Shown: piece by piece, positions 1,414 to 25,743 of the stretch
Position numbering within the stretch: the first letter of the stretch is position 1
How the letters are laid out: each line of letters begins with the position of its first letter
DNA from: an uncultured Rickettsiales bacterium
Lineage (GTDB): Bacteria; Pseudomonadota; Alphaproteobacteria; Rickettsiales; JABCZZ01
Reading direction: 5' to 3'
Assembly: GCA_964454545.1 (NCBI GenBank)
Contig: CAYVTI010000005.1
Location: 106-64,105, forward strand
DNA length: 64,000 nt
Made by a program: the position numbers and the translations under genes
Notes under the pieces: model-generated
Told to the model about the DNA's origin: nothing
Databases searched by the model: none
The model's input: only the letters and a program-made list of their open reading frames with translations

Positions 1414-1500
1414 AGGGCGAAAATGATATTGCGATGGAAGGATTTTTTATGCAAGCTAATCATTGCTTGACCTTGTGAATATAATTATTAATAAAGCCTA

Positions 1501-2571
1501 ATGAATTTTGAAGATAAACTGGAGATGCTGATCAGGCGGCATGACGAGTTGCGTGACGCGATGGCGCGTCCGGACGCCGGTTCCGAATATGCCAAGCTGT
1601 CCAAGGAATTTGCCGAGCTTACCCCGGTAGTGGAGTCCATTACGGAGCTTAAGAAGGCGAGATCCGAGCTCGCATCCATGAAGGAAATACTGGCCGATCC
1701 CGGCTGCGATGCGGAGATGAAGCGCATGGCGGAGGAGGAGATTCGTGGGCTTGACAAGCAGATTCCGGAGCTTACGCGCCAGGTGCGGCTTGCCCTTCTG
1801 CCCAAGGACGCTGCGGACGAGAAGAACGCGATCATCGAGGTACGTGCCGGGACCGGGGGGGAAGAGGCGGCGCTTTTTGCCGCGCAGCTTTTCCGGATGT
1901 ACCAGCGTTATGCCGAAAACCAGCGCTGGAAATTCGAGATTCTTTCCATGTCCGAAACCGGCATCGGCGGTTGCAAGGAGGTAAGCGCTTCCGTCACGGG
2001 ACGGGGAGTGTTCGCCAAGCTCAAGTTCGAATCCGGCGTGCACCGGGTGCAGCGCGTGCCGGTCACCGAAGCGGGCGGGCGGGTGCATACATCGGCTGCG
2101 ACCGTGGCCGTGCTCCCGGAAGCTGAAGAGGTCGATATCGTCATCAACGACAAGGATCTGCGCATCGACGTTTTCCGGGCGAGCGGCCCGGGCGGGCAGT
2201 CGGTCAATACCACGGACAGCGCCGTGAGAATCGTGCATATTCCGACTGGGGTTACTGTGCAGCAGCAGGATGAAAAATCGCAGCACAAGAACAAGGAAAA
2301 AGCGATGAAAATCCTGCGCGCCCGGCTTTATGAGATGGAACGCGAGCGGGCGGAGGCTGAGCGTGCCGCGTCGCGCAAGGGGCAAGTCGGAACCGGCGAC
2401 CGTTCCGAGCGCATCCGCACTTATAATTTCCCGCAAGGCAGGGTGACCGATCACCGTATCAACATGACGCTCTATAAAATCGACGCGGTCATGGACGGCA
2501 GCGGGCTTGGTGAGATGATCGACGCGCTTGTCGCCCATGATCAGGCGGACAGGCTGGCGGAGTATGGATGA
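1501..2571 (+). CDS. prfA: Peptide chain release factor 1
   Basis: 356 aa. GGQ motif present ([23 protein letters not shown]) and the full length follows the RF1 pattern. Confidence 0.95.
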
Positions 2572-4356: not shown

Positions 4357-5718
4357 CTAGTTAAGCGTCCGGTACACGGATAGCGAACGCAGGAGATCAT
4401 AGGCGCGCGCCAACTGGAAATCCTCGTTTTCCGGCATATTCTCATCCGACTCGCCTGTAGAAGTCTCAGGCTTTGAGCGCTTTTTAGCTTCCGGCTTGGT
4501 CTCCGGATTGCCTTCACCCTGCGCCTTATTCTGTTCAGACTGGTTCTTTTCATCCTCCCTGCGCAACCTGTGGGGCAGGCTTGCTTCCAGGCGCTGTATC
4601 GCGGATTTTTTGACCGGTTCTATCTTGGCCTGTTCCACGGCGATATCCGGAGTGATGCCCTTGGCCTGTATGGAATGTCCGGAGGGGGTGTAGTAGCGTG
4701 CCGTAGTCAGTTTCATGGCTCCATGACCCGGAAGTGGTATAATGGTCTGCACGGAACCCTTGCCGAAGGATTTTACGCCCATGACGACGGCGCGTTTGTG
4801 ATCCTGCAGGGCGCCTGCAACGATCTCCGACGCCGAAGCGGAACCGTTATTGATCAGGACAACTATCGGGATATCCTTCCCTGCGCTGTCTTTCGCGATG
4901 TCGCCGCCATGCGCTATGTAGCGCTTGGTGTTTTCCGGATCGCGGCCGCGGGTGGAGACGATCTCCCCTCCGTCAAGGAATGCATCCGACACGGCCACTG
5001 CCTGGTCGAGCAATCCGCCAGGGTTATTGCGCAGATCGAGCACGATGCCTTTTACATCGCCGATGGCTTTTTTCTGTTTCTCCCATTCGTCCCTGAGCTT
5101 GTCTATGGTCTGCTCGTTGAACTGGGTAATGCGCAGATATACCAGATCGCCATTGGTGCGCGAGCGCACGGACTTGATGCGTATGATCGCCCGGGTGATG
5201 TTGAATTCGAGCGGCTCAGTTTCGCCTTCGCGCAACACGGTGATTTTGATCTTGGTGTCAGGCGCGCCGCGCATTTTGTCCACCGCATCGGACAGGGTCA
5301 TGCCCATGACCTGCTCGTCATTAATCGCGCTGATGTAATCGCCTGCATGGATGCCCGCCTTGAAGGCCGGTGTATCGTCAATTGGCGAAACTACCTTCAC
5401 AAGGCCGCCTTCCATAGTGACTTCTATGCCCAGCCCGCCGAACTCGCCCTTGGTCTGAACCTGCATTTCCTTGAAATTCTTTTCGTTGAGGTAACTTGAA
5501 TGCGGATCGAGGGAGGAAAGCATGCCGTTGATGGCGGCTTCGATGAGATCGCTATCCTTGACCGGTTCCACATAATCCGTGCGTACGCGCTGGAATACAT
5601 CGCTGAACAGGTTGAGAAGATCATATACGTCTCCTGCCTTGTCGGCGAGGCAGACGCCGGAAACGCTGATCAGAAATAACGCGGCGGCGGAAATACGGAA
5701 AATAGTGCGACTGCGCAT
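4357..5718 (-). CDS. ctpA: Carboxy-terminal processing protease (peptidase S41)
   Basis: 453 aa. Signal peptide, PDZ segment (GLGIEV...GLVKVVSPIDDTPAFKAGIHAGDYI) and S41 core (DLRNNPGGLL, GSASASEI). Confidence 0.9.
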   Translation of the reverse strand: MRSRTIFRISAAALFLISVSGVCLADKAGDVYDLLNLFSDVFQRVRTDYVEPVKDSDLIEAAINGMLSSLDPHSSYLNEKNFKEMQVQTKGEFGGLGIEVTMEGGLVKVVSPIDDTPAFKAGIHAGDYISAINDEQVMGMTLSDAVDKMRGAPDTKIKITVLREGETEPLEFNITRAIIRIKSVRSRTNGDLVYLRITQFNEQTIDKLRDEWEKQKKAIGDVKGIVLDLRNNPGGLLDQAVAVSDAFLDGGEIVSTRGRDPENTKRYIAHGGDIAKDSAGKDIPIVVLINNGSASASEIVAGALQDHKRAVVMGVKSFGKGSVQTIIPLPGHGAMKLTTARYYTPSGHSIQAKGITPDIAVEQAKIEPVKKSAIQRLEASLPHRLRREDEKNQSEQNKAQGEGNPETKPEAKKRSKPETSTGESDENMPENEDFQLARAYDLLRSLSVYRTLN

Positions 5719-5786: not shown

Positions 5787-6521
5787 TCATGCGCTGATCG
5801 CGCTCAAGAAAGATTTTTCCAGCGTTTCACCTTTATTCGTCTGCTTGAAGTGTTGCGGGGTGCCGAGGAAGATGAGCCTGCTATTGCTTATGACCCCGAT
5901 CCGGTCGCATATCTCGTCAATGTCGGACAGAATATGCGAGCTGAAAAAAATGGTTTTGTTCCTGGCCTTGCAGTCGAGCAGCTTTTCTTTCAGCATGATA
6001 CGCGCACGCGGATCAAGGCCGCTCATCGGCTCGTCCAGGATCAGGAAGGGCGCGTCAATCAGGAATGCGCCGATTAATCCCAGTTTCTGTCCCATCCCCT
6101 TGGAGTAAGAGCCCACCTTATTTTCCAGCGCCTGCGGATCGAGATCGAGTCTCACGGCTTCCTGCCGCGCCTGTTCCATGTCGAAAGGCTTGCCGAAATA
6201 AGCCAGCGAAAGCTCCAGATATTCCTTGCCCCTCAAGTAGCGGGAAGGCTGAAATTTTTCCGGCAGATAGGATATGTTTGTCCTCGCAGATGCGTCCATG
6301 CAGGATTTGCCGAAAATCCGCGCTTCCCCGGAATCGGGGCGCGTCAGATCAAGAATATTCTTAATCAGCGTGGTCTTGCCCACGCCGTTCAATCCGATGA
6401 GGCCGAACAGTTCTCCCGGTTCCAGGGACAGGGAAATATTATCCAGCACCAGATTATCGCCGTACCGTTTTGTGATATTTTTAACCTCGAGAGGTTTCTG
6501 TAAGATATTGTTCGTGCTCAT
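5787..6521 (-). CDS. ABC transporter ATP-binding protein (ABC-2/NatA-like), no adjacent permease
   Basis: 244 aa. Walker A GLNGVGKTT, signature YSKGMGQK, Walker B FLILDEP. Starts 17 nt after the preceding gene's stop. Confidence 0.85.
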   Translation of the reverse strand: MSTNNILQKPLEVKNITKRYGDNLVLDNISLSLEPGELFGLIGLNGVGKTTLIKNILDLTRPDSGEARIFGKSCMDASARTNISYLPEKFQPSRYLRGKEYLELSLAYFGKPFDMEQARQEAVRLDLDPQALENKVGSYSKGMGQKLGLIGAFLIDAPFLILDEPMSGLDPRARIMLKEKLLDCKARNKTIFFSSHILSDIDEICDRIGVISNSRLIFLGTPQHFKQTNKGETLEKSFLSAISA

Positions 6522-6538
6522 TATTGTCTTGCCTGGAG

Positions 6539-7519
6539 TTATTTGGTGGGCGCCGCGCCAGCGGGTGATTCTTTTCCCTTTACCGCAAAGAAACTGCCGT
6601 CCGGCCTGATTAATCCTTCACGTATCTGGAGGGAACTGGAGATAAACGTCTGGTTCGGATGCATATTTAATGTAACCATGTTGTTCGCGCTGTCCACAAC
6701 AATGTTAGGTATGTGGGTCTTCCCTCCTTCCGTCATCTGATTCCACTTGTCAGGCAGATCATTGAGCGAATGAGGTTTCCATACCAGCTCCACTTCTTTG
6801 CGCGATATTTTGCTGATATAGAATTCGTTGGTTGGTGCGTTGTGGCTGGCGGATATTCTACGTCCGTTGATGGTTACTATCCATGTGCCTGGCGAAGTGT
6901 ATACAATGGAGCCGAGGTATATGTTAGGGAGTTCATGTGGCAATATCTGCTGTTCGGGCTCGTTACCGAAAATGTCGCGCAGATCTTTTTTCTGCTTCTG
7001 GTCCTGTTTGTTGCGCGCATCGTAACTGTCATAGGCTTTTATCATTGTACTGATGGTATCCATTTCATCGCTGCTGAACATGATGGTCAAGTTGGTATGA
7101 GCTGTTGCTGGCTCAGTGGCGGCAGAAGGCGCTGCTGCCTGTCCGGCTGGCGCGGATGGCACGGGTAAGGCGGATGTATTCTCTGTGGAAGGTTCGGTTT
7201 TTTCCGGGTTCTTAGCCGATCCGGGCAGCGGCATGTGCCCGGACGTATTCGGCAACGGGATAACGGGAAGAGAAACAGGCAGCGACGGCTGGACTAACGC
7301 CGGTTTTGGCATATCCGCTGATGGTTTTGCTGGCAGCTGTGGTTTGGCAGGCGGAGCGTTGTTGCTAGTGGCATTGTTGTCCGGCATGACGGGAAGTTCA
7401 AGGGTTTCTCCGGCCTTTGCAGGTGGGGCGGAGTTGTCGGAAGTCCCCCATGCAGGATGGACGGCAAGCATCGCGTACAAAGCGGCGGATAAGGCAAATA
7501 AAGACGCTTTATGTTGCAT
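6539..7519 (-). CDS. Secreted Pro/Ala/Ser-rich protein with PilP / GspC-HR-like C-terminal domain (hypothetical)
   Basis: 326 aa. Signal peptide MQHKASLFALSAALYAMLAVHPAWG, then a long low-complexity P/A/S linker. The C-terminal LGSIVYTSPGTWIVTINGRRIS...ISKISRKEVELV resembles the PilP/GspC HR pattern. Its start overlaps the upstream stop (TAATG). Confidence 0.5.
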   Translation of the reverse strand: MQHKASLFALSAALYAMLAVHPAWGTSDNSAPPAKAGETLELPVMPDNNATSNNAPPAKPQLPAKPSADMPKPALVQPSLPVSLPVIPLPNTSGHMPLPGSAKNPEKTEPSTENTSALPVPSAPAGQAAAPSAATEPATAHTNLTIMFSSDEMDTISTMIKAYDSYDARNKQDQKQKKDLRDIFGNEPEQQILPHELPNIYLGSIVYTSPGTWIVTINGRRISASHNAPTNEFYISKISRKEVELVWKPHSLNDLPDKWNQMTEGGKTHIPNIVVDSANNMVTLNMHPNQTFISSSLQIREGLIRPDGSFFAVKGKESPAGAAPTK

Positions 7520-8178
7520 TATTTTGCCCCATTCGCGTTTTCCTGATTAGAACGTATGCCGATCCATGTGAACGTCAGGTCCCCGGTCACCATCGGAACA
7601 AGCGTGTGCTGGTTCGTCGCCAGCAATACGCTGTTTTTCGATAACTCCCCGCTTTTAACTATTTTAAGTTCGGAAATCATTACGATGCCGGGCAGTTTGT
7701 GTTGCAGATCGTGGATGAGATTATATACCGAATTATCCGAAAGGGCGCCGAAGGTGATGTGTACCGTGCTTTTGACAGCCTTGCCGCTTTTTATGGTAAA
7801 TGTATTCTCGCTTACATCCGCTATGGGAGATACGGTAACTTCTATGTTGTTGGATAAATGATGGATTTTGCGTAAAGACGAAAGCAGTTCGGTCACCGTT
7901 TCACGGTTAATGGTGAAATTCTCGTTATGGTCCTTCACATAATTATCGTGGTACTTCGCCACCTCATTCTGCAGGCCGAGATTCGTTTCAATTTCTCTGT
8001 ATTCGGAACTTATCGTATTATTCTGTCCCTGCTTCAAGGATTGTTCCGCCTCCATACTGTCATTATAGTTAGACAGGTAGAATGCCGCGGAAATCAAGAT
8101 GGCAAGCGCCAGCGAAACGATAACGGCGCTTTTTACCAGCAGCTTTTTCAGTAATTTTTCTTTTGATATTGTCAACAT
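7519..8178 (-). CDS. PilO / GspM / MshJ-like bitopic inner-membrane protein (hypothetical)
   Basis: 219 aa. Short cytoplasmic N-terminus, one TM (SAVIVSLALAILISAAFYL), a polar coiled region and a C-terminal domain. The motif VYNLIHDLQHKLPGIVMISELKI resembles the PilO LPRIVTL motif. Confidence 0.5.
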   Translation of the reverse strand: MLTISKEKLLKKLLVKSAVIVSLALAILISAAFYLSNYNDSMEAEQSLKQGQNNTISSEYREIETNLGLQNEVAKYHDNYVKDHNENFTINRETVTELLSSLRKIHHLSNNIEVTVSPIADVSENTFTIKSGKAVKSTVHITFGALSDNSVYNLIHDLQHKLPGIVMISELKIVKSGELSKNSVLLATNQHTLVPMVTGDLTFTWIGIRSNQENANGAK

Positions 8179-8179
8179 A

Positions 8180-9814
8180 TCATCTGCCCGCTGCTTTGGT
8201 GGAATTTTTATCCAGATTCGGGCCAGCCATAGTTACTTTTATGATGTCGCTCTGCGTATTGGCGGAATTTGCTTTTGTGTCGTCGCTTAGAACTGCTCTG
8301 ATATCCTTATTTTCCGATATTATGCCCGGCAGATCGGAGTAGGTTATGTTATAAGCGGAAAAATGATTTTTCATACGCCTCGTAAATTCCTGCACGTCTT
8401 CAGCGAGTTTTTCCTGGGACAGTTGTGACGGCGGCGTGGTCATATGCAGTTCTATCTCGGCCTGCACCTGGCGTTTATCCGTGGCTTTTGTGACTGCCAG
8501 CGGATCAATCAGGCTCCAGTGGAAGCTGTTTGCAAGCGCGAATGTCTCTATGCTTGCGGATAGATTTTCCACCAGTGACAGAACATCCAGTTCCTTTTTA
8601 TTGATAAGCTGCGTCATGATCATGATGTCGCTATAGAGGCTTACGTTTTTGGGTAGCGTTTCTGCCCTCGCCTTGATTTTGGCCAAATCTGCATTCAGCG
8701 TTTTATGCTTGGTTTCCAGAGAGTCTATGGCCTGCTTTGCGCTGGCTATGCCTACCACACTCACGCCGATCCAGGCCAGAGCGGCCAATGTCCCCAGGAT
8801 GCCGGAAAGTTTCACAGATTTTACGGCAAGAGCCATCCAGCGGAGCTTCTTGGTATAATTGGTATATAGGGGAAGTATAAGTTTGCGTTGTTTTACGATA
8901 TAAGATGAAATAACGACATCGCCAAAATTATCGCCCACCTGCGCCGCCTCAGTGAGAGATAGCAGGCTGGCGATTTCATAGGGCGTGAAAATATGATGTT
9001 CGCCGGATTTGATATTTCTCGGATCAAGCACCTGCTTGATTTCATCGCCGCAAATAATGGTTATCGAAGTCTGCGACTGATCCTGCAGGCCGAGCCGCTT
9101 CAGGTATTCCATGGTATTGATAATTTCTTGCTCGATGTTGCCCGCCATCACACCGGGCGTGGGATCGCCGAACGGCTGTGCCATGCGTGTGAATACCAAT
9201 TTATCGCCACGCATGACAATTTGCCTGAAACCGCCTACCTTATGGTGGCTGACCAGTATTTGCCATTCGAGCGGCGACGCATCCTTACCGGTGCTTTTGA
9301 GGAGGGACTTTCTAATGGCTTTCATGAAGTTCTGAGCTTCAAGCGGCAACAGTCCCATGCCATTGAACGGGTTGGCGCGTTCCGTGGCGAACGCTATCCA
9401 TTTCTGAAGTATCTGGGTATTGGCCAGCGATACCATCATGTAATTCCAGTCCTTGCGACCAGTCTTTTCCCGATCCAGAATAATGAACCCCTTGATATCG
9501 TCCGGCGAGAAGTCCTTCGTCAGCCTGCGGTTTATAATTTTTCCGACGCTGAATGAAGAAACAGGTGGCAAGGTCTGGCGGACATAGGACTGATCCATTA
9601 TATCAAACAAGAGAGTGATGGGCACGTTGGGGGAATTCGAGAGCGCCTCCTCGAATCCTTTCACGTTCACCGGATCGGGAGATTGCGCAAACAGTCTCCT
9701 TACGACAGCGCCGCTTTGTATCTGCACCAGGACAGCGCCTTCATCCCCTATCATGAGAACGAAATGCCCGCGGCCGGATGATTTGCTTTTTGATGTTTTC
9801 GAGCGCGCTGCCAT
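8180..9814 (-). CDS. PilM+PilN fusion-like (GspL / MshI / BfpC-like) bitopic protein (hypothetical)
   Basis: 544 aa. A soluble N-domain of about 330 aa begins GHFVLMIGDEGAVLVQIQSG, like the first strands of actin-like PilM/GspL. It is followed by a single TM (LSGILGTLAALAWIGVSVVGIA), then a coiled coil and a periplasmic domain. Translationally coupled on both sides. Confidence 0.45.
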   Translation of the reverse strand: MAARSKTSKSKSSGRGHFVLMIGDEGAVLVQIQSGAVVRRLFAQSPDPVNVKGFEEALSNSPNVPITLLFDIMDQSYVRQTLPPVSSFSVGKIINRRLTKDFSPDDIKGFIILDREKTGRKDWNYMMVSLANTQILQKWIAFATERANPFNGMGLLPLEAQNFMKAIRKSLLKSTGKDASPLEWQILVSHHKVGGFRQIVMRGDKLVFTRMAQPFGDPTPGVMAGNIEQEIINTMEYLKRLGLQDQSQTSITIICGDEIKQVLDPRNIKSGEHHIFTPYEIASLLSLTEAAQVGDNFGDVVISSYIVKQRKLILPLYTNYTKKLRWMALAVKSVKLSGILGTLAALAWIGVSVVGIASAKQAIDSLETKHKTLNADLAKIKARAETLPKNVSLYSDIMIMTQLINKKELDVLSLVENLSASIETFALANSFHWSLIDPLAVTKATDKRQVQAEIELHMTTPPSQLSQEKLAEDVQEFTRRMKNHFSAYNITYSDLPGIISENKDIRAVLSDDTKANSANTQSDIIKVTMAGPNLDKNSTKAAGR

Positions 9815-11016
9815 TACAGATTCATTTTACTGAAGGATTGATATAGCGGGCCGAACACCGCAGCGATGACCCAGAATATAAGCGCGCCCATCACGATGGT
9901 AAGCACGGGCTGAATCATGCCCACCACGTTTTCGACGGCGTCATTTATTTCACGCTCATAGAAGAAATTGATATTTGCAAGCGATTCAGACATGTTGCCG
10001 CTATCTTCCCCGATTTTGAACATGCGCACCACCAGGCTTGGAAACTGGTTCGACATGCGCATGGAAGAGGTAAGGGACATGCCTTCCGACACGCTGCGGG
10101 TCATGGTGTCGATGGATTCCTTCAATACCCTGTTTGCCACCACGTTCTTGGCGGCCTGCAGCGATTCAAGTATCCCTATGCCGCTATTGAACAGCACCGA
10201 GAAGAAGTGGGTGAAACGCGCAAGGTTTATCTTACGGCTGACCTCTCCCAGTATAGGAAGCTTCAGAATAAAGCCATCCACCCGGTAGGCGAAATCTTCC
10301 GAGGTGCGGTAGAAGATGGCGAAAGTGATAATGCCTATGATCGGCAGGCCGAAGATGATATACCAGTAATTAACGAACGCGTCCGAAACCGCGATAAGCG
10401 CCCGCGTGTGCAGGGGAAGAACAAACCCTTGCGCTGTCATGAAAGCGATGAGTTTGGGCACCACGAAGGTCATAAGCGCCGTGATTACGCCGCTCATGAC
10501 GAGCAATAGGGCAATAGGATAGCGTATCGCCTTTTTTACTTTCCGGCGCAGGTCGTTCGTCCATTTCAGATGCTCGGCGATGTGCAGGAACGACTCGGAA
10601 AAGTTTCCGGTCTTTTCACCGGAAGCGATCAACCCGACAAATACTTCGTTAAAAATGTGCGGATAATGGGCTAACGCTTTGGATAGCACTTCGCCATTCT
10701 TTACGTATTCGTGCACCCCGGTCATGACATTCTTCAAGGTATTGGAGTCCGTTGTGTCGCGCACATCCGCTATGGCGTCAAGAAGCGATACGCCGGCGCG
10801 CCCCAACTGCTCCAGGTGCAGGCAGCACACGATCATATCCTGGATTTTTACTTTGCCGGAACTGCTGCCTTTTTTCTCGCGCAGCTCTTTGAAATGGACC
10901 AGATCGAGGCCTATCTGTTTGAGGCGATCCTCAAGATCCACATCATTTTCCGCCGTCACTACGCCTTTTATCGTCCGTCCTATTTCATTAACAGCGGCAT
11001 ATCTGTAATAGGGCAT
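9814..11016 (-). CDS. Type II secretion / type IV pilus platform protein, GspF/PilC family
   Basis: 400 aa. The N-terminus MPYYRYAAVNEIGRTIKGVVTAENDVDLEDRLKQIGL is typical of GspF/PilC. Two repeated GspF-type halves with 3 TM segments. Confidence 0.8.
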   Translation of the reverse strand: MPYYRYAAVNEIGRTIKGVVTAENDVDLEDRLKQIGLDLVHFKELREKKGSSSGKVKIQDMIVCCLHLEQLGRAGVSLLDAIADVRDTTDSNTLKNVMTGVHEYVKNGEVLSKALAHYPHIFNEVFVGLIASGEKTGNFSESFLHIAEHLKWTNDLRRKVKKAIRYPIALLLVMSGVITALMTFVVPKLIAFMTAQGFVLPLHTRALIAVSDAFVNYWYIIFGLPIIGIITFAIFYRTSEDFAYRVDGFILKLPILGEVSRKINLARFTHFFSVLFNSGIGILESLQAAKNVVANRVLKESIDTMTRSVSEGMSLTSSMRMSNQFPSLVVRMFKIGEDSGNMSESLANINFFYEREINDAVENVVGMIQPVLTIVMGALIFWVIAAVFGPLYQSFSKMNL

Positions 11017-11256
11017 ATCCTGGCCTTAATTCCTTGACTCTTCAGTTGCTTCGAGCCGCACGGCGTTGCTGCAGAAACCATGTGAATTATGCGGCAAATT
11101 AAGATTTTGTTCAATGATTAAATATGTTAATATCATATTAGCGCCTTACTATACTAAGGTAATGCGTGGTTTGGCAAATCATGATTTGATCTGCCAGTAT
11201 AAATCTTATGCGTGCGATGTTGGCAAGACACATGGAATAGGCCGGAAGAGGCATAT

Positions 11257-11532
11257 TTGAAGAAGAAGCTGCTGATACTCGTTTTTCTTTGCATCTGCGG
11301 ATGCAGGCCGGTGGAATTGTGGTTTTCCGAACCGGAAGGACCGCCGGAATTCAGGCTGGGATGGGAAGACGGATGCGACACCGGCCTTTCGGCGCAGGAC
11401 AGCGGTTATATGTACCGCGCGGTTTATGGCTACAAGCGGCGTCCCGAAATGGTGGACAACGAGCAGTATAAGAACGGGTGGAATGAAGGATTCAGCTACT
11501 GTCGTTTCAGCGCCGCATCTTTGCTGGACTAG
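11257..11532 (+). CDS. Small Cys-containing lipoprotein, tandem paralog 1 (hypothetical)
   Basis: The track ORF starts at GTG 11212. TTG at 11257 lies 5 nt after GGAAGAGG and gives (M)KKKLLILVFLCICGC, a lipobox signal peptide. The mature part has GWEDGCDTG...FSYCRF. Confidence 0.6.
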   Translation: MKKKLLILVFLCICGCRPVELWFSEPEGPPEFRLGWEDGCDTGLSAQDSGYMYRAVYGYKRRPEMVDNEQYKNGWNEGFSYCRFSAASLLD

Positions 11533-11556: not shown

Positions 11557-11826
11557 CTGAACCGAAAATTGCTGTTGATAGTGTTGTTGTGTCTCTCCGG
11601 ATGCAGGCCGGTGGAATTGTGGTGGTCACGGCCGGAAGGGCCGCCTGAATACACGGCCGGATGGGAAGACGGATGCGACACCGGCCTTTCGGCGCAGGAC
11701 AGCGGTTATATGTACCGTGCGGTTTATGGCTACAAGCGGCGTCCTGAAATGATGGACAACGAGCAATATAAGAACGGGTGGACTGAAGGCTTCAGTTATT
11801 GCCGTTTCACTGCCGCCAGCAGATAA
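11557..11826 (+). CDS. Small Cys-containing lipoprotein, tandem paralog 2 (hypothetical)
   Basis: The track start is TTG 11569, which is 18 nt from the strong SD AAGGAGGA (11543-11550). In-frame CTG at 11557 is 6 nt from the SD and gives (M)NRKLLLIVLLCLSGC, parallel to paralog 1. The start is therefore uncertain (11557 or 11569). Confidence 0.55.
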   Translation: MNRKLLLIVLLCLSGCRPVELWWSRPEGPPEYTAGWEDGCDTGLSAQDSGYMYRAVYGYKRRPEMMDNEQYKNGWTEGFSYCRFTAASR

Positions 11827-11872: not shown

Positions 11873-12682
11873 ATGCATAGACGACATATGAATGAACCGT
11901 TGCAGATAGCCTGTGTGGCTGATACCACCAAGGTAGCTCAGGAAGCGTATCTTGAAATCGCCAGCCAGTATAAGCTCGTCGATGTGACGCAGAAACGGCG
12001 CGGAGCTTCCGGCAGTACCGCGGATGTCATAGTAGTGCTGGGCGGGGATGGCTTCATGCTCCAGACCATGCACCAGTATATGGCGCGCAACATACCTTTT
12101 TACGGGATGAATTGCGGCACGGTCGGCTTTCTGATGAATACCTATTCTTCCAGCAATCTTATTCAGAGGATTCAGGAAGCGCGCAGCCACATACTGCACC
12201 CGCTCAGCATGTATGCCCGCAATGTCCAGGGCAAGACCTATGAAATGCTGGCTATCAACGAAGTATCCATTTTCCGCCAGAGCAGGCAAGCCGCGAAGCT
12301 TCGGATAACGGTGGATCACGTAGTGCGGATCGCCGAAATGATCGCGGACGGTATACTGGTTTCCACTCCGGCAGGCAGCACGGCCTATAACAGTTCAGCG
12401 GGCGGGCAGATCATACCGCTGGGGGCCAACATACTGGCGCTTACTCCGTTGTCGCCGTTGCGTCCGCGCCGCTGGCGGGGCGCGCTGCTGCATCATAACT
12501 CCTCGGTCATGTTTGAAAATCTTGATCCCGCAAAGCGTCCGGTCAACGCGGTTGCCGACTTTACCGAAGTGCGCGACGTGGTTTCAGTTGCCGTGCATGA
12601 GGATCAGAAAACCAGGATCAATTTATTGTTCGACGCGGAACATAATCTCGAAGAGCGGATTATAAAAGAGCAGTTTATGTAG
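11873..12682 (+). CDS. nadK: NAD kinase
   Basis: 269 aa with VVVLGGDGFMLQ, NxGxxGFL and TPAGSTAYNSSAGG motifs. The alternative start at 11888 (MNEPLQIA) is possible. Confidence 0.9.
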   Translation: MHRRHMNEPLQIACVADTTKVAQEAYLEIASQYKLVDVTQKRRGASGSTADVIVVLGGDGFMLQTMHQYMARNIPFYGMNCGTVGFLMNTYSSSNLIQRIQEARSHILHPLSMYARNVQGKTYEMLAINEVSIFRQSRQAAKLRITVDHVVRIAEMIADGILVSTPAGSTAYNSSAGGQIIPLGANILALTPLSPLRPRRWRGALLHHNSSVMFENLDPAKRPVNAVADFTEVRDVVSVAVHEDQKTRINLLFDAEHNLEERIIKEQFM

Positions 12683-14595: not shown

Positions 14596-15465
14596 ATGGC
14601 CTCAGAGGTTGCAGTTCAAAAAACTAAAAAAGTCGGATTCCTGCTTACTTTTGCGGAAGTGGCGCTGGGGTTTATCATCGTTGGCCTTTGCATAGGACTG
14701 GTGTTCTGCGGCGCGGAAGTTATAAAAATATCGAAACTCAGGGCGCAGATGAGCCAGATAGCGCATTTTGATGAAGCCATTGCCCAATTTTATGAGAAGT
14801 ATGAAGGCTTGCCGGGAGATCTTCTGGCCGCCAAGGCGGAGCGCGAAGGACTGGTGACGGGGGATGGCACGCCGAGCCATAGCGACGGCGATGGGAAGAT
14901 ATCTCCGTGCAATCCGGGCTGGCAGTATCACATAGGGTGTGAAACCGCGTTGTTCTGGGCGCAGCTTGCAAGCGCCGGGTTCATCTCCGGGAATTACACC
15001 GCCGACAGCAGGCTCGCGGATGAACGCCTTGATAAGGTCAGCGTGACGATGGCTCCTTATCTGCCGGTGTCTCCTATTGATGACGGCGTCTATATCACGG
15101 TATGGAATTCCGACGAGATGCAGCCTTCGCCTGAGCCGAGGCTACCTTATGGCAATTATTTTGAAGTCACGCGGATTGCCGGCGTGCACAAGGAAAGGAT
15201 CAAGGAAAATACGGGCGCCCTGTCTCCGCTTGAGGCGCGCGCGATCGACAACAAGATGGATGACGGATCGCCCTGGAGCGGGCGCATAAAGGTAAACGGC
15301 AACACCTCCTGGCCGGACGATACCTGGGGAATGCTGTCAAGGGCGGGGGCGACCAACTGCGTCTATCTGGATCACACCTATAACAACCGTAATTATTTCC
15401 TCGCGCACCGTCCTTTGTGCCATCTGGCAATCGCGTTTACCTGCTGTGAGAACAAGGATAGGTAG
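14596..15465 (+). CDS. Pilin / pseudopilin-like protein with atypical N-terminal signal (hypothetical)
   Basis: The track ORF starts at TTG 14572; the first ATG is at 14596. The N-terminus is MASEVAVQKTKKVG|FLLTFAEVALGFIIVGLCIGL. It is followed by QIAHFDEAIAQFYEKYEGLPGDL, which is like GspG/pilin alpha1-C. Cys pairs lie in the C-terminal half. Confidence 0.4.
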   Translation: MASEVAVQKTKKVGFLLTFAEVALGFIIVGLCIGLVFCGAEVIKISKLRAQMSQIAHFDEAIAQFYEKYEGLPGDLLAAKAEREGLVTGDGTPSHSDGDGKISPCNPGWQYHIGCETALFWAQLASAGFISGNYTADSRLADERLDKVSVTMAPYLPVSPIDDGVYITVWNSDEMQPSPEPRLPYGNYFEVTRIAGVHKERIKENTGALSPLEARAIDNKMDDGSPWSGRIKVNGNTSWPDDTWGMLSRAGATNCVYLDHTYNNRNYFLAHRPLCHLAIAFTCCENKDR

Positions 15466-17727: not shown

Positions 17728-18981
17728 TTAAAAATTATCCTTAAACCACTGGATGATATTCTTCAAATCAAAAGGCAGGGGCTTACGCCGCGCGCTGTCG
17801 GAATGGATTTTCTCCAGCGTGTTGCGTCGCGCGAATTCCATCATGCCGATGGAAGTGGAAAACGCCGCCCCGCTCACCGCTTCGGCGAGGCCGTTTATCG
17901 CGCGCGGCTTGACCTGTCTTACCTGCTTGCCGAGCACGCGGGTAGCGATTTCGCGCATGCCGAGCAACTGGCTTGCCCCGCCGGTCAGCACCACGCGCCT
18001 TCCTGCTATCTCATCAAGTCCCGCCATCTCCAGCTTGTTGCGTATCATCTCGAATATTTCCTCCAGGCGTGGCCGGATGATGCCTACCATGATCGAGCGC
18101 GGTATCATATTGCCGCCGTCTTCGTATTCTTCGCCGAGCGGCGGAACGTCGATCATCGTCTGGTCATCGGAAGATGTCGGGATGGCGCTGCCGTGCAGGG
18201 TCTTGAGGCGCTCCGCATGGGCGATGGAAGTGGAGAGACCCTTCGCCAGATCGCTCGTCACATGCGTGCCGCCAATGGGCGCGACGTCGGTATAGATATT
18301 CCTGCCGCCCGCGAACACCGCCATGCTGGTGATGCCCCCTCCCATGTCGATAAGGGTGACGCCGAGCTGCGTTTCATCCGGCTCAAGGCAGGCAAGGCCG
18401 GAGGCATAGGGCGAAACCACAAAATCGGCGACATTCAGGTGGCAGTTGGCCAGGCAGTTGGAAATATTGCGTATCATGGTGGCGGGCGCGGTGATGATGT
18501 GCAGATCCGCGCTCAGTTTCTCGCCGATCATGCCGCGCGGGTCGTTGATACTCCTGACGTCGTCCAGCGCGTAACTCACGGGAAAGCAATGGATGATTTC
18601 GTGTTCGTCATTCTCGACGTTTGCGCGTCCTTCCTGCAGGATATCCTCCATGTCGCGTTCGGACACCGTATCGCCGGAGACGGTCATCTCCACTTTCAGG
18701 TTATGCGAGGCAATCCCTGCGCCGCCCAGGCTCACCACGACGTTCTCTATGGTTTCCTCCGCCATCTGCTCGGCGGCGTGCACGGCTGCCAGTATCGAGG
18801 TTTCCGCCTCCACGATGTCGATGATATGGCCGCTGCGGATGCCCTTGGACAGCTGGTGGCCGATGCCGCTTACTTCCACGGTGCCGTCGGTGCCAAGCTT
18901 TGCGATGAAGCAGACAACCTTGGTGCTGCCCACGTCGAGCACGGCGAGGTTTCCGCTAAGTCTTTTCAATTTACTGGTCAT
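17728..18981 (-). CDS. ftsA: Cell division protein FtsA
   Basis: 417 aa. LAVLDVGSTKVVCFI, TLIDMGGGITSMAVF, GGTHVTSDLA and VLTGGASQL actin-like motifs. Confidence 0.9.
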   Translation of the reverse strand: MTSKLKRLSGNLAVLDVGSTKVVCFIAKLGTDGTVEVSGIGHQLSKGIRSGHIIDIVEAETSILAAVHAAEQMAEETIENVVVSLGGAGIASHNLKVEMTVSGDTVSERDMEDILQEGRANVENDEHEIIHCFPVSYALDDVRSINDPRGMIGEKLSADLHIITAPATMIRNISNCLANCHLNVADFVVSPYASGLACLEPDETQLGVTLIDMGGGITSMAVFAGGRNIYTDVAPIGGTHVTSDLAKGLSTSIAHAERLKTLHGSAIPTSSDDQTMIDVPPLGEEYEDGGNMIPRSIMVGIIRPRLEEIFEMIRNKLEMAGLDEIAGRRVVLTGGASQLLGMREIATRVLGKQVRQVKPRAINGLAEAVSGAAFSTSIGMMEFARRNTLEKIHSDSARRKPLPFDLKNIIQWFKDNF

Positions 18982-19265: not shown

Positions 19266-20873
19266 ATGCCAAGATTGATCCCATCAGATCGCCATCCTAC
19301 AGCCGAAATACTTCATCAGCTGGTATTAAATTATATTGAGAAAGGAGATGATGGTTCACAGTATATCGTGGACAAATCAGGCGCGGGACGTCATCAGGGG
19401 GCTGCTAAGGATGGGGATAAGGTGTATCTTGGAATTGAGGCTATCAAGATGTTCATAAATCTGAATAGGAATAATATAAATGACTGGATAGCGGATACGA
19501 AACATAAACATACAGAGTTAAATCGTATATTGAGTATTTCATATTTTCCGTGGGAAGGCAGCCCGTTTGCAATTCCCTCCAGAGAGGAGCGGAATGTGCG
19601 GGCGAAAAATTTATTAAGCCTGTATGAAGCTGAAATATTTAATGATCCTCCTGATACATCTGAAAGAGTTACACCGGAAAATGAAAAAGTCACGCCGGAA
19701 AATAAAAAGAAGTTATTAACGCATTCAGACGAAAAAGGACGCAGCCTTATCAAAGTGGCGATAAAGACTGGTGAGGTTGACATATTTCGCAGAGTAATAG
19801 ATTTATTTGCCGCACATCTGGATGATCATTCCATTGTTTTAGAACTAAAGACTCGTAAGGGATTTAACCCTCTTAGTAGCGCGGTTTCATCCGGCAATAT
19901 AAAGATGGTAAAAGCAGTATCAGATTTCTTCAGAGATTTTCCGCTTGAGGAAATAAAAGAACAACTGACGATGAGATCTCAGAGTAAGCCTTCCGTCCTT
20001 ATAAGGGCTCTAAAAAGTGGTAATACGGATATGGCTAAGTTGTTAATAGATATATATGAGAAACACGGCCTTCAGGAAACATTAAAGGGACATTTAAAGG
20101 GCGATCCGAAGCAGCCCGACCTGCTAGGGGCAGCTGTAGACGGTAAAAATTCTGATATGATTGATTTATTATTAGGCAAATCCATAAAACTTGAAATGGA
20201 TGGAGTTCTCAAACTACAATTGGCAGCGAAAGATTCGAAAAATTCTACTTTACTGCAAAGGGCGGTAATCGGCGGTAATGCGGAAATAGTGGATGCGCTA
20301 CTGAAAGGATATCGTACTCCTAAATTGCAGGATTTGCTGGTACGGCAGTTGGAAGAGAAAGACACAGATGGTTCTACTTTACTGCAAAGGGCGGTAATCG
20401 GCGGTAATGCGGAAATAGTGGATGCGCTACTGAAAGGATATCGTACTCCTAAATTGCAGGATTTGCTGGCGCGGCAGTTATTAGAGCCGGATATGTATGG
20501 AAATAACATGCTTATGGCATCCGTGAGGAGTCATAACCCTGAGGTATTCAGCGCAATAAGCAAGGCGATACTTGTTGAGTATTCTCCAATCGAACTTTTG
20601 GAAGCCCTAAAAACAGCCAATCATGAAGGGATTGATCCAATTGCGAGTGTCACGGAAAGCAAGCAAGCGGCTGAAAAAAGTGGAAATGCAAATATAACAC
20701 TCGGAGATAGTGCCATAATAAAAGAAATTGGAATTTTACTAGAACATTTCGAGAAGTTAGCTGCCTCTTATGGAACTGCTAATTATACAGATACTCTTCT
20801 TACACCAAGTGAACGTAGTAATATTAACGAAGGTGCTATTCGTAGCCTTACTACAAGGTTGCCCAATCGCTGA
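19266..20873 (+). CDS. Ankyrin-repeat protein
   Basis: 535 aa. It has repeated xGxSxLxxAxxxGNxxxVxxLL units, for example [60 protein letters not shown] (twice) and [16 protein letters not shown]. The gene and its 5' flank are visibly more AT-rich than the neighbours. Confidence 0.85.
20243..20501 (+). repeat. Tandem 129-bp (43-codon) duplication inside the ankyrin gene
   Basis: 20243-20340 is identical base for base to 20372-20469 (about 98 nt). The offset is exactly 129 bp and in frame. Confidence 0.9.
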
Positions 20874-22981: not shown

Positions 22982-24601
22982 ATGAAAATTGCCATAGCCC
23001 AATCCAATTTTACCGTAGGCGACATCGCGGGCAATATGGAAAGAATCGCCGCGCTGCACAGGCAGGCATCGAAGCAGAAGGCCGATCTGCTGATCTGCTC
23101 CGAGATGTGCATCACCGGTTATCCGCCCGAGGATCTGGTGCTGCGCAAGAGCTTCCGGCAAGCCGCCATGCAAGCGGTTTCCGGGCTTGCAAGCCTTACG
23201 AAAAAAGGCGCGGCCCTGCTCTGCGGAGGATTGTGGAATGAGGATGGGGCATTGTATAACGCGGCTTTCCTGTTTGAAAACGGCCAGGTCGTCCATCGCC
23301 AGTACAAGCATCACCTGCCCAATTACGGCGTGTTTGACGAAAGGCGGGTATTTAAGGAAGGAATCTTTCCTGCGCCTCTGTCATGGCGCGGGATGAAGCT
23401 CGGGCTCCTGATATGCGAGGATATGTGGAGCGATGATGTCGCCCGGAATTTAAGCATGCATGGCGCGGAACTGCTTGTGTCCATCAACGCCTCGCCGTTT
23501 GACGTGAAAAAGCATGACGTACGCATTGCGCAGGCGAAACAGCGCGTGTCGGAAACCGGGCTTCCGCTTATATATGTCAACCAGATCGGCGGGCAGGATG
23601 AACTGGTGTTTGACGGCAGCTCGTTCGTCATGTCGGCGGATGGGATTGTGCAGGGGCAGCTGGATAGCTTCAGGGAGGATTTTGCGATCGTAACCTGGGA
23701 TGCAGGCGGCAAGCGCCTGGAATGCGGTGCGAAAGGTGAGGCGAGGGGGGAAAAAAGAGGTGAAGATGAGCTCATCTATAACGCGCTGACGCTGGGATTG
23801 CGCGATTATGTGGAAAAGAACCGTTTCCCGGGCGTGGTTCTGGGGCTTTCCGGCGGCATCGATTCGGCGCTCACCGCAGCGGTTGCGGTCGATGCGCTGG
23901 GCAGGGAACGCGTGCATGCGCTCATGATGCCTTCGCCCTATACTTCGCGCGCGAGCCTTGAAGACGCCGCCGCATGCGCAAGGGCGCTTGATATCAGGCT
24001 GGATATCGTTCCCATCTCGCAGGCCATGCTGGTGTTTGATGAGCTTCTTGCGCCCCTGTTCGCGGGTGGGAAGCCGGATGTGACGGAGGAAAACATCCAG
24101 TCGCGCCTGCGCGGCAATATCCTCATGGCGGTCAGCAACAAGTTTAACAAGATGTTGCTTACAACGGGCAACAAGTCGGAAATGTCGGTGGGGTACGCGA
24201 CGCTTTACGGCGACATGTGCGGCGGGTTCAACGTGCTGAAGGATGTGTATAAGATGGAAGTGTACGCGCTTGCCAGATGGCGTAACCGGCAGCGCGAGGT
24301 GATCCCGGAGCGCGTTCTGACCCGTGCGCCGTCCGCCGAGCTCAAGCCCAACCAGACGGATCAGGACAGCCTGCCGCCTTACGATATACTGGACGCAATC
24401 CTCGAACGGCTTATCGAGGAGCAGATGCCGGTGAGTGAAATCATCGCGGCCGGGTATGAGCGCGAGACGGTGGAGAAAGTGTCCCGGATGCTATACCGTT
24501 CCGAATACAAGCGCCGTCAGGCCCCTCCGGGCGTGAAGATAACGACCATGTCCTTCGGCCGCGACCGCCGTTACCCGCTTACCAATGGCTGGAGCTTATG
24601 A
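22982..24601 (+). CDS. nadE: Glutamine-dependent NAD+ synthetase
   Basis: An N-terminal CN-hydrolase domain plus a C-terminal NAD synthase domain (GLSGGIDSALTAAV, TGNKSE). ATG at 22982 is preferred over the GTG at 22979. Confidence 0.9.
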   Translation: MKIAIAQSNFTVGDIAGNMERIAALHRQASKQKADLLICSEMCITGYPPEDLVLRKSFRQAAMQAVSGLASLTKKGAALLCGGLWNEDGALYNAAFLFENGQVVHRQYKHHLPNYGVFDERRVFKEGIFPAPLSWRGMKLGLLICEDMWSDDVARNLSMHGAELLVSINASPFDVKKHDVRIAQAKQRVSETGLPLIYVNQIGGQDELVFDGSSFVMSADGIVQGQLDSFREDFAIVTWDAGGKRLECGAKGEARGEKRGEDELIYNALTLGLRDYVEKNRFPGVVLGLSGGIDSALTAAVAVDALGRERVHALMMPSPYTSRASLEDAAACARALDIRLDIVPISQAMLVFDELLAPLFAGGKPDVTEENIQSRLRGNILMAVSNKFNKMLLTTGNKSEMSVGYATLYGDMCGGFNVLKDVYKMEVYALARWRNRQREVIPERVLTRAPSAELKPNQTDQDSLPPYDILDAILERLIEEQMPVSEIIAAGYERETVEKVSRMLYRSEYKRRQAPPGVKITTMSFGRDRRYPLTNGWSL

Positions 24602-25507
24602 ATTCCTGACAAAAGAACGCAGCGCCAGCATGGGGAGAAGGATTCGCTTCTCCATTTTTGATTCCTGCGGCAGGCCTTTCGCTTTATAGGCGTCCTCTGC
24701 AAGCCACGCGAGGCGGAGCGCGCCGCACAGGGAAAAGAAATTATTGATGGAGCCCAGCATATTGCCACTTGCGATTCCGGAGGCAATGTTGAAAGCCGTA
24801 CCTGCAACGATGATCATGAACGGGGTGGCGGGATTGGAAAATATGCCGGACAACAGTCCGGCGGATGAAAAGGTTGTTGCCCCGATTCCGAGAAGGGTTG
24901 CAGTAAGCGCGGGCATATTGCCGGATGGGTCTTCAAGAAGCTCCATGCCGCCGCCGGCCATCAGCCCGATGGCGGCATAGCCTACGCCGAAATAGACGGT
25001 CGGATGCGTGAGCGTTCTTACCCATCTTCCGGCCTGCATGTTGAGCTGCAATTGCGTTGCGCGCCTGCTTGCCGCCATGAAATTCCCGCAGGCGAACGCC
25101 AGCCCTGCGATGCCCGGTAAAATAGCGCCTGCCTGGAGGGAAACGAGGCCTGCGATCAGAATCCCGCACGCATTGATGAAAAGGGAAGGCGGCTGGTTTG
25201 AAATGAAGCCTTTAAGCAGTTTGGAGGCGGGCCATAATGCCGTTCCTTTTCTCTTATAATCCTGAATATTGGAAAAAATAACTCCGGATATGATGGCGAG
25301 CGCCGCCGCGCATAGCGTGATGGCGATGGCCAGCATGCTGCCGGACTGGAACATTGCAAACACGTTGGCCAGCGCGAACAGGACGCCCGGATCATAAGTA
25401 ACCTGTGGGATTTTCATGCCAGAATTTGTGTCCTGAAACCTGTATTCAGGCAATAATAATCTGCGGGAGGCATTGACGCGCGGCTTTTTATCTTTATAAG
25501 CGTTCAT
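24596..25507 (-). CDS. Polytopic membrane protein (hypothetical)
   Basis: 303-aa Gly/Ala-rich multi-TM ORF. The start at 25507 is only 4 nt from the tRNA gene, so the internal ATG at 25417 (MKIPQVTYDPG) is a plausible true start. The 3' end overlaps nadE by 6 nt (convergent). Confidence 0.55.
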   Translation of the reverse strand: MNAYKDKKPRVNASRRLLLPEYRFQDTNSGMKIPQVTYDPGVLFALANVFAMFQSGSMLAIAITLCAAALAIISGVIFSNIQDYKRKGTALWPASKLLKGFISNQPPSLFINACGILIAGLVSLQAGAILPGIAGLAFACGNFMAASRRATQLQLNMQAGRWVRTLTHPTVYFGVGYAAIGLMAGGGMELLEDPSGNMPALTATLLGIGATTFSSAGLLSGIFSNPATPFMIIVAGTAFNIASGIASGNMLGSINNFFSLCGALRLAWLAEDAYKAKGLPQESKMEKRILLPMLALRSFVRNS

Positions 25508-25510
25508 AGT

Positions 25511-25597
25511 GCCCTGGTGGTGGAACTGGTAGACGCGCTAGACTCAAAATCTTGTATCCGCAAGGATGTGTCGGTTCGAGTCCGACCCGGGGCACCA
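25511..25597 (+). tRNA. tRNA-Leu (anticodon CAA), CCA encoded
   Basis: GCCCTGG acceptor stem pairing with CCGGGGC, anticodon loop CUCAAAA, a long variable arm (ATCCGCAAGGATG), T-arm TCGGTTCGAGTCCGA and 3' ACCA. Folded by eye. Confidence 0.9.
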
Positions 25598-25617
25598 CTG
25601 GAAAATCAAAGAGTTAT

Positions 25618-25683
25618 CTGGCATCCATCTTTAATATATCGCGCCAGACGGCGCTCTTGCTGGATGCCAGATTACGCTGGCAT
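25618..25683 (+). other. Alternating CTGGCAT(CC) inverted repeats just 3' of tRNA-Leu
   Basis: CTGGCATCC (25618-26) pairs with GGATGCCAG (25662-70) and encloses a GCGCC-AGAC-GGCGC hairpin. A third CTGGCAT at 25677-83 can pair alternatively with 25664-70. Confidence 0.4.
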
Positions 25684-25743
25684 AACAAGGAAAAACAAAT
25701 ACTTATTCCTTTCCTTATCCAAAACTCAGGTTAATTTATAACA

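Follow-up and report, generated by a model that had tools for sequence, protein, structure and literature searches.

A probable core operon of a divergent type IVa-like pilus, with a linked ABC ATPase gene, in an uncultured Rickettsiales bacterium

Introduction

In the type IVa pili of Pseudomonas, Myxococcus and Thermus, a PilC platform works together with the products of a separate pilMNOPQ operon, whereas in type II secretion systems (T2SSs; GspF-L-M-C) and in the mannose-sensitive haemagglutinin (MSHA) pilus (MshG-I-J-K with MshE) the counterparts of PilM and PilN are joined in one chain. The type IVa cluster of Myxococcus xanthus also holds the gene of an ABC ATPase, pilH, along with pilG and pilI; the passage of PMC3724824 that cites Wu et al. 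1998 gives each of the three genes as required for piliation, and they are discussed further in PMC6060248. For metagenome-assembled genomes (MAGs) of basal Rickettsiales, system-level detections of type IV pili have been reported (PMC9352585, PMC10847448). Here, we describe a five-gene operon at positions 5787-11016 of a 64,000-nucleotide stretch of DNA (hereafter the window) from an uncultured Rickettsiales bacterium (GenBank assembly GCA_964454545.1, contig CAYVTI010000005.1, positions 106 to 64,105 of the forward strand). In our judgement these genes probably encode the membrane and periplasmic core of a divergent, retractile type IVa-like pilus that belongs to a clade of uncultured Alphaproteobacteria, with its motor genes located elsewhere and an ABC ATPase as an accessory.

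Architecture of the operon

The open reading frame (ORF) listing and the sequence give five tightly coupled genes, listed here in order of transcription:

9814-11016, minus strand: PilC/GspF-family inner-membrane platform protein, 400 aa (Pfam, NCBIfam)
8180-9814, minus strand: predicted PilM-PilN fusion, 544 aa (AlphaFold2 model and Foldseek, profile comparison)
7519-8178, minus strand: PilO/GspM-like bitopic protein, 219 aa (HHalign match to the PilN-like C-terminal half of the 544-aa family)
6539-7519, minus strand: PilP-like periplasmic protein, 326 aa (AlphaFold2 model and Foldseek, non-significant)
5787-6521, minus strand: stand-alone ATP-binding protein of ABC-2/ABCA type, consisting of a nucleotide-binding domain (NBD) only, 244 aa (Pfam ABC_tran)

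A first-pass annotation, made from the letters of the window alone, had described this close spacing, and the ORF listing reproduces its genes and junctions: the start of the 544-aa gene overlaps the stop of the 400-aa gene as TAATG at 9814, a 1-nt gap at 8179 separates the 544-aa and 219-aa genes, a second TAATG overlap at 7519 joins the 219-aa and 326-aa genes, and 17 nt lie between the 326-aa gene and the ABC gene. Promoter and terminator scans of the operon did no better than chance (9 found; 8.4 and 8.5 expected), so that the candidate -35/-10 pair at 11177-11148 and the weak hairpin at 5795-5780 are to be read in that light.

Judged by family models, the 400-aa product is unambiguously a platform protein of the PilC/GspF family, as had been proposed. 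It matches Pfam T2SSF with two domains (E 6e-48) and has three hydrophobic segments by hydropathy. Its NCBIfam matches are full-length, yet all fall under the equivalog cutoffs, the best model being GspF with 299 bits (cutoff 424) and the PilC models following with 215-237 bits.

The three middle proteins, of 544, 219 and 326 aa, have no significant match in Pfam or NCBIfam, which agrees with the earlier remark that they are too divergent to place in a named subfamily. For the 544-aa protein, a first search recovered 228 homologues, none of them named and most from MAGs that carry the label Rickettsiales or Alphaproteobacteria, and a profile search of 1.84 billion representatives returned 1957 representatives at 50% identity while staying clear of the canonical PilM and PilN families. 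The 544-aa family is thus a discrete family without an existing model.

Its structure is best approached through an AlphaFold2 (AF2) model built on 32 sequences, with a mean predicted local distance difference test score (pLDDT) of 83.5. Approximately 315 N-terminal residues run twice through a beta-beta-beta-alpha-beta-alpha-beta-alpha pattern, which is an actin-like fold; a single long helix at 319-386 then crosses the membrane and runs on as a coiled coil, with the one transmembrane (TM) segment placed at 333-360 by hydropathy; and the final periplasmic domain is laid out as alpha-alpha-beta-beta-alpha-beta-beta. A twofold alpha-beta-beta arrangement has been described for PilN, PilO, GspM and the periplasmic domain of GspL. 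In a Foldseek search of the PDB the model found PilM first (5eoy, 5eou, 2ych and 3jc8_Ma, E 1e-9 to 3e-8), with PilM from P. aeruginosa, Thermus and Myxococcus occupying ranks 1-6 and 9-12, followed by FtsA and then by the cytoplasmic domains of EpsL, GspL and PulL (E 4e-7 to 1.5e-6); the GspL cytoplasmic domains have the highest target-normalised TM-scores, at 0.59-0.64. For the membrane and periplasmic part the links are weak and point to PilN: the top match of the family profile among PDB sequences is M. xanthus PilN over residues 330-435 (E 0.05), and HHalign places residues 335-437 in register with a PilN-family sequence, itself checked against the PilN of 3jc8 (Prob 41%, E 3e-4). The PilM ranking and the PilN profile links therefore lead us to read the 544-aa protein as a PilM-like actin fold fused to a PilN-like TM, coiled-coil and alpha-beta part. 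The model supports this reading, and with it the GspL/MshI-type architecture (soluble N-terminal domain, one TM segment, coiled-coil periplasmic part) that the first-pass annotation had put forward.

Hydropathy gives the 219-aa protein one TM segment at 9-38; a coiled coil and a putative alpha/beta domain follow. A profile of its family, made from 32 aligned sequences out of 76 homologues detected in related loci, matches the C-terminal half of the 544-aa family over 119 columns in HHalign (Prob 95%, E 3e-8), against 2.3% for a reversed-sequence control and 0.2% for the N-terminal domain of the 544-aa protein; among PDB sequences the same profile found nothing beyond coiled-coil noise. The comparison supports the 219-aa protein as a paralogue of the PilN-like arm of its neighbour, and since it is always encoded directly after the 544-aa gene in related loci, the pair would stand in a PilN/PilO (or GspL/GspM) relationship. 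It is this paralogy that supports the earlier sketch of the protein as a TM segment, a coiled coil and a PilO-like domain.

The only hydrophobic stretch of the 326-aa protein is an N-terminal signal-like segment, and in the family alignment the signal peptide ends in sites of Ala-x-Ala/Gln type. The cleavable signal is followed by a Pro/Ala-rich linker that varies within the family, by a short helix that is conserved and by a beta-rich domain at approximately 198-300, in which the motifs YLxSIVY, WxVWxNG, VxLxWKP, PNQTF and EG are conserved. Homology searches with the protein and with its alignment recovered no more than 7 and 8 sequences, and were probably dominated by Pro-rich words; the AF2 model, resting on 9 sequences, reaches a pLDDT of about 80 for residues 200-290 and is disordered in the remainder. 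Among 350,542 chains, Foldseek ranked PilP of N. meningitidis first (2ivw, E 0.016, prob 0.89) and PilP of P. aeruginosa third (2lc4, E 0.099). The earlier account of a secreted protein with a long Pro/Ala/Ser linker thus stands, and PilP, to which it likened the C-terminal segment, is the best-ranked identity at a non-significant score; we regard the protein as PilP-like in architecture and probably, short of proof, in fold.

Most homologues of the 326-aa protein carry a further conserved C-terminal motif past a second Pro-rich spacer, of the type GLGGLI..YKKL or R....L(I/F)..(K/M)Q (for example at L035:12237-13157, L058:5414-6295 and L014:12324-13355, where the L-numbers denote loci in other genomes). 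The motif, which could be a docking peptide for another component, is absent from the window and its closest relatives.

The conserved cluster and its motor genes

When one genome per species was scanned with the alignment of the 544-aa family, 132 loci emerged, and 80 of these were fetched and analysed; all come from MAGs, nearly all labelled Alphaproteobacteria or Rickettsiales, and their genes were mapped by phmmer with the window proteins and with neighbours from relatives. The dominant order is pilB-pilC-544-219-326-ABC, followed convergently by pilT, pilU and a gene for a TPR protein. PilB of the relatives scores 496 bits on the type IVa PilB model and 481 bits on GspE, and passes NF053729, the model for a c-di-GMP-binding N-terminal motif of MshE type (56.6 bits, cutoff 38; L003:6883-8721 and equivalents), which suggests c-di-GMP control of pilus extension. 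Both products of the pilT family pass the PilT/PilU model, with 407 and 478 bits against a cutoff of 319. The flanking families that recur within 10 kb of the cluster are housekeeping ones: cysNC, ccm genes, pyrD and an M23 peptidase.

Only in the nearest relatives of the window (L001, L002, L005 and L006, at 58-63% identity) do the motor genes not adjoin the operon; in L007, at 54% identity, they are rearranged and lie within 8 kb. Since motor genes flank the cluster in most relatives and are missing from its side only in the window and its closest relatives, the stand-alone state is derived, and the arrangement in the window, as far as gene order can tell, is a dispersal of an otherwise canonical cluster for a retractile pilus. 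PilC of the window and its L001 orthologue are 84% identical, which argues that the machine is being maintained. The first-pass annotation had noted, correctly, that the operon and its flanks hold no PilB/GspE ATPase, secretin or prepilin peptidase, and had offered two explanations, a dispersed type IV filament system or a platform module repurposed with a different energiser. The relatives bear out the first of these and speak against the second, together with the notion of a stand-alone platform: in most of about 80 loci, pilB lies immediately upstream of pilC, and two genes of the pilT/pilU family and the TPR gene lie beside the ABC gene. No homologue of the TPR gene occurs in the window.

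A pilin-like gene can also be added to the list, at variance with the earlier statement that the flanks contain none:

14596-15465, plus strand: divergent prepilin-type (pilin- or pseudopilin-like) protein, 289 aa (phmmer homology to prepilin-type proteins of relatives)

By motif scan, several loci contain prepilin-type ORFs, 260-340 aa long; they sit within the cluster in L016, L046 and L068 and 7 kb upstream in L001, and these proteins of the relatives pass Pfam N_methyl and TIGR02532. The window gene, which lies 3.5 kb upstream of the operon and whose 289-aa product matches the gene call on record, is homologous to the prepilin-type protein of L001 (phmmer E 1e-27), in which the N-methylation motif reads GFTLIE. 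Neither Pfam N_methyl nor TIGR02532 recognises the window protein, which could represent a pilin that is atypical or in decay.

The linked ABC ATPase

The 244-aa protein matches Pfam ABC_tran (E 5e-24); its best NCBIfam matches are generic ABC-2 models (drrA, GldA and NodI-like), and its nearest PDB sequences are the second NBDs of ABCA1, ABCA4 and ABCA7 and Thermotoga TM0544. Its gene is present in 65 of the 68 loci in which the position is visible, with none in view in the other three. In 56 of the 68 it directly follows the 326-aa gene (nine of the 56 with a 4-nt overlap), and in nine it has been relocated to a divergent position adjoining pilB, upstream of it (L021, L024, L034, L037, L040, L063, L068, L077 and L080). 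The Walker A, Q-loop region, signature, Walker B, D-loop and H-loop motifs are at least 90% conserved across 65 ABC sequences, and judged by these motifs the enzyme is catalytically intact. The pairwise distances of the ABC protein track those of PilC (r = 0.78) as closely as the distances of the 544-aa protein do, and mean identity among loci is 60% for the ABC protein and 63% for PilC. Near-universal presence, motif conservation and this correlation together make the ABC ATPase a stable, co-evolving member of the cluster; the comparison of relatives thus answers the question, raised by the first reading, of whether the gene is kept in synteny at the end of the operon.

That reading had also called the protein an ABC-2-type ATPase without a permease, and the related loci agree: in about 80 of them there is no polytopic permease family, no PilI-like ABC-2 permease and no PilG-like gene adjoining. 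In seven of the nine loci with a relocated gene, a short gene follows (none was found in L040 and L080), and it was dismissed as a permease because its product is squalene/phytoene-synthase-like. Two other ABC genes in the loci were likewise set aside as unrelated, a 619-aa protein of L084 that is an ABC-F protein and a 669-aa protein of L065 that is a half-transporter, convergently placed and present at that locus only. As to the identity of the ATPase itself, CcmA was rejected since no CcmA model is among the top NCBIfam matches, and LptB on a score of 97 bits against a cutoff of 240; a pairing of ExeA/ExeB type with the 326-aa protein as a GspB-like partner is unlikely, the ABC protein having no membrane segment.

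Interpretation and alternatives

In a type IVa-like machine of this kind PilC would be the platform, and the PilM-like domain of the 544-aa protein would form a cytoplasmic ring that docks PilB or PilT over PilC, as in models of type IVa pili and T2SSs. The fused PilN-like periplasmic arm would heterodimerise with the 219-aa protein, and the 326-aa protein would act in the role of PilP, its beta domain bridging the PilN/PilO-like pair to the outer-membrane conduit. In the lineage of the window the motor genes would have moved elsewhere, leaving the operon as a dispersed piece of a machine and not a self-contained one; we infer that the source genome encodes pilB, pilT and a secretin. The ABC protein would most likely, by analogy with PilH, supply the NBD to an exporter on which the biogenesis or function of the pilus depends, its membrane subunit being encoded at another site.

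A number of observations weigh against this picture. The 64-kb window contains no pilB, pilT, secretin or prepilin peptidase, and in all 80 loci a search of the 10 kb around the cluster finds neither a secretin gene nor PilD; the same holds for an ABC permease partner, so that the exporter role is one of analogy. PilC, like PilB of the relatives, scores about equally on T2SS and type IV pilus models. The profile of the 219-aa family matched one PilO sequence of P. aeruginosa (validated against 2rjz) with an HHalign probability of 1.6%; the likeness to the LPRIV-type motif of PilO seen at first reading does recur there, as LPGIV/LPRIV within a match of 23 columns that is non-significant overall. 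The 326-aa protein has no lipobox cysteine, its Foldseek search yielded no match at E 1e-3, with PilP best and below significance, and its profile also gives weak matches to FN3 domains (E 0.005-0.01). Finally, the motif of the window pilin-like protein has a two-residue insertion, GF-LL-TFAE against GFTLIE. In the profile and structure searches named in the first-pass annotation as its check, the link of the 544-aa protein to PilM is significant, and the direct links of the 219-aa protein to PilO and of the 326-aa protein to PilP are not.

Four other explanations deserve consideration, two of which concern the ABC ATPase. It could be an unrelated passenger that serves an ABC-2 permease encoded elsewhere and is merely co-transcribed with the pilus genes. 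The protein is a plain NBD of a common type, no locus supplies a permease, and in nine loci the gene stands apart from the 326-aa gene, in seven of these next to one for a squalene/phytoene-synthase-like protein. However, a passenger would not be expected to persist in 65 of 68 loci while the neighbouring proteins diverge by 30-60% in sequence, to stay adjacent to pilB when relocated, to overlap the preceding pilus gene by 4 nt in nine loci, or to equal the PilM-N protein in how tightly it co-evolves with PilC, and Myxococcus PilH offers the nearest precedent for a pilus-linked ABC ATPase (PMC3724824); we consider this explanation rather unlikely. Alternatively, the ABC ATPase may be an integral subunit of the pilus machine that has no classical permease and docks onto PilC or the PilM-like ring, where it would add an ATP-driven or ATP-gated element, for example in the extraction or loading of pilins or as a switch between extension and retraction. 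If true, this would be a type IV filament machine using both PilB/PilT-type and ABC-type ATPases, a prospect that we rate as distinctly unlikely.

The third explanation replaces the pilus itself: the genes would encode a T2SS-like system, with GspF, GspL (544 aa), GspM (219 aa) and a GspC/GspB-like protein (326 aa), that secretes proteins by means of a short pseudopilus. In its favour, the platform fits GspF better than PilC (299 against 215-237 bits), PilM-PilN fusion is the architecture of GspL, whose cytoplasmic domains lead in target-normalised TM-score, the 326-aa protein has a weak NCBIfam match to GspB (E 0.025), the pilin-like proteins of relatives match GspG and GspH, through the N-terminal motif only, and PilB of the relatives scores nearly as well on GspE as on PilB. 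Every T2SS model nevertheless scores under its cutoff, the window and its flanks lack gspD, a gspC with a PDZ domain and a gspG-K block, and most clusters of relatives include two cutoff-passing genes for retraction ATPases of the PilT/PilU family, which classical T2SSs do not have; we therefore hold a T2SS-like system to be very unlikely. The last explanation, that in the lineage of the window the ABC ATPase has replaced PilB as the motor driving PilC and the PilM-N protein, would suit the tight linkage of a permease-less ABC gene and the absence of pilB and pilT beside the operon in the window and its four closest relatives, but is extremely improbable, given that the great majority of related clusters contain pilB, pilT and pilU as well as the ABC gene, which was therefore not acquired as a replacement, that L007 keeps all three motor genes close by, and that the high identity of PilC between the window and L001 fits a retained, PilB-driven function with pilB at another site.

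Other features of the window

The genes that the first-pass annotation had placed around the operon, lipoprotein genes and nadK on one side and ctpA on the other, are found there:

11212-11532 and 11569-11826, plus strand: two small duplicated lipoprotein-like genes, between the operon and nadK
11873-12682: nadK, operon flank
4357-5718: ctpA, operon flank

The two lipoprotein-like paralogues arose by a tandem duplication (247 nt, 86% identity) and match no family. Further along the window, a chaperone-usher-type fimbrial cluster at 24596-28898 (minus strand), which comprises an usher gene (26820-28898; Pfam Usher, E 9e-19) and, at 25744-26850, a gene whose product is weakly SCPU-like, would be a second surface-fibre system, unrelated to the type IV pilus genes. 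A gene of the FtsA family (FtsA and SHS2 domains) at 17728-18981 (minus strand) lies outside any recognisable dcw cluster and adjoins a ThiF-family gene and the gene of an ankyrin/TPR protein (19266-20873). Near the start of the window, opposite strands carry two long, overlapping ORFs; that at 1501-2571 (plus strand) is a peptide chain release factor with PCRF and RF-1 domains, and that at 1498-2538 (minus strand) is a shadow ORF.

Comparison with known systems

Compared with the type IVa systems of Pseudomonas, Myxococcus and Thermus, the locus shares the PilC platform, an actin fold like that of PilM, two PilN/PilO-like bitopic paralogues that have a coiled coil and a predicted twofold alpha-beta-beta domain, and a secreted protein in which a small beta domain accompanies a disordered, Pro-rich linker; in relatives the cluster also includes pilB, pilT and pilU. 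It differs in that PilM and PilN are fused, that its sequences match no PilM, PilN, PilO or PilP model of Pfam or NCBIfam, that the PilP-like protein is not a lipoprotein, and that the position of pilQ after the PilP-like gene is taken by the ABC ATPase gene, the whole following the order pilB-pilC-MN-O-P instead of forming a pilMNOPQ operon of its own. With T2SSs and the MSHA pilus it has in common the one-chain PilM and PilN protein followed by a paralogous bitopic protein, a platform nearest to the GspF model and the MshE-type c-di-GMP motif in PilB of the relatives, and the TPR protein of the relatives recalls MshN of the MSHA pilus. Unlike those systems it has PilT and PilU genes in the cluster, no adjacent secretin (GspD or MshL) and no PDZ domain; the 326-aa protein bears a cleavable signal and not a TM anchor, and the family models score below their cutoffs. 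As read here, the system works like a type IVa pilus with a fused alignment protein in the style of T2SSs and MSHA, and by sequence models it belongs to no named subfamily. A literature search found no description of a fused PilM-N, a non-lipoprotein PilP-like protein or a conserved ABC gene in an alphaproteobacterial pilus cluster.

Three sizeable families without a Pfam or NCBIfam model thus become readable as equivalents of PilMN, PilO and PilP, in a pilus system of poorly known uncultured Alphaproteobacteria that apparently include lineages labelled basal Rickettsiales, and surveys using the standard PilM, PilN, PilO and PilP models would probably score such machines as incomplete. With the PilG-PilH-PilI genes of Myxococcus xanthus the cluster shares an ABC ATPase gene among type IVa pilus genes, a likeness of gene context from which it departs in having neither a PilI-like permease nor a PilG-like gene alongside. 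The linkage of a permease-less ABC gene, almost universal here, extends the unexplained PilGHI observation from Myxococcus to a second phylum-level group, and provides a cleaner case in which to ask how an ABC ATPase contributes to a type IV pilus.

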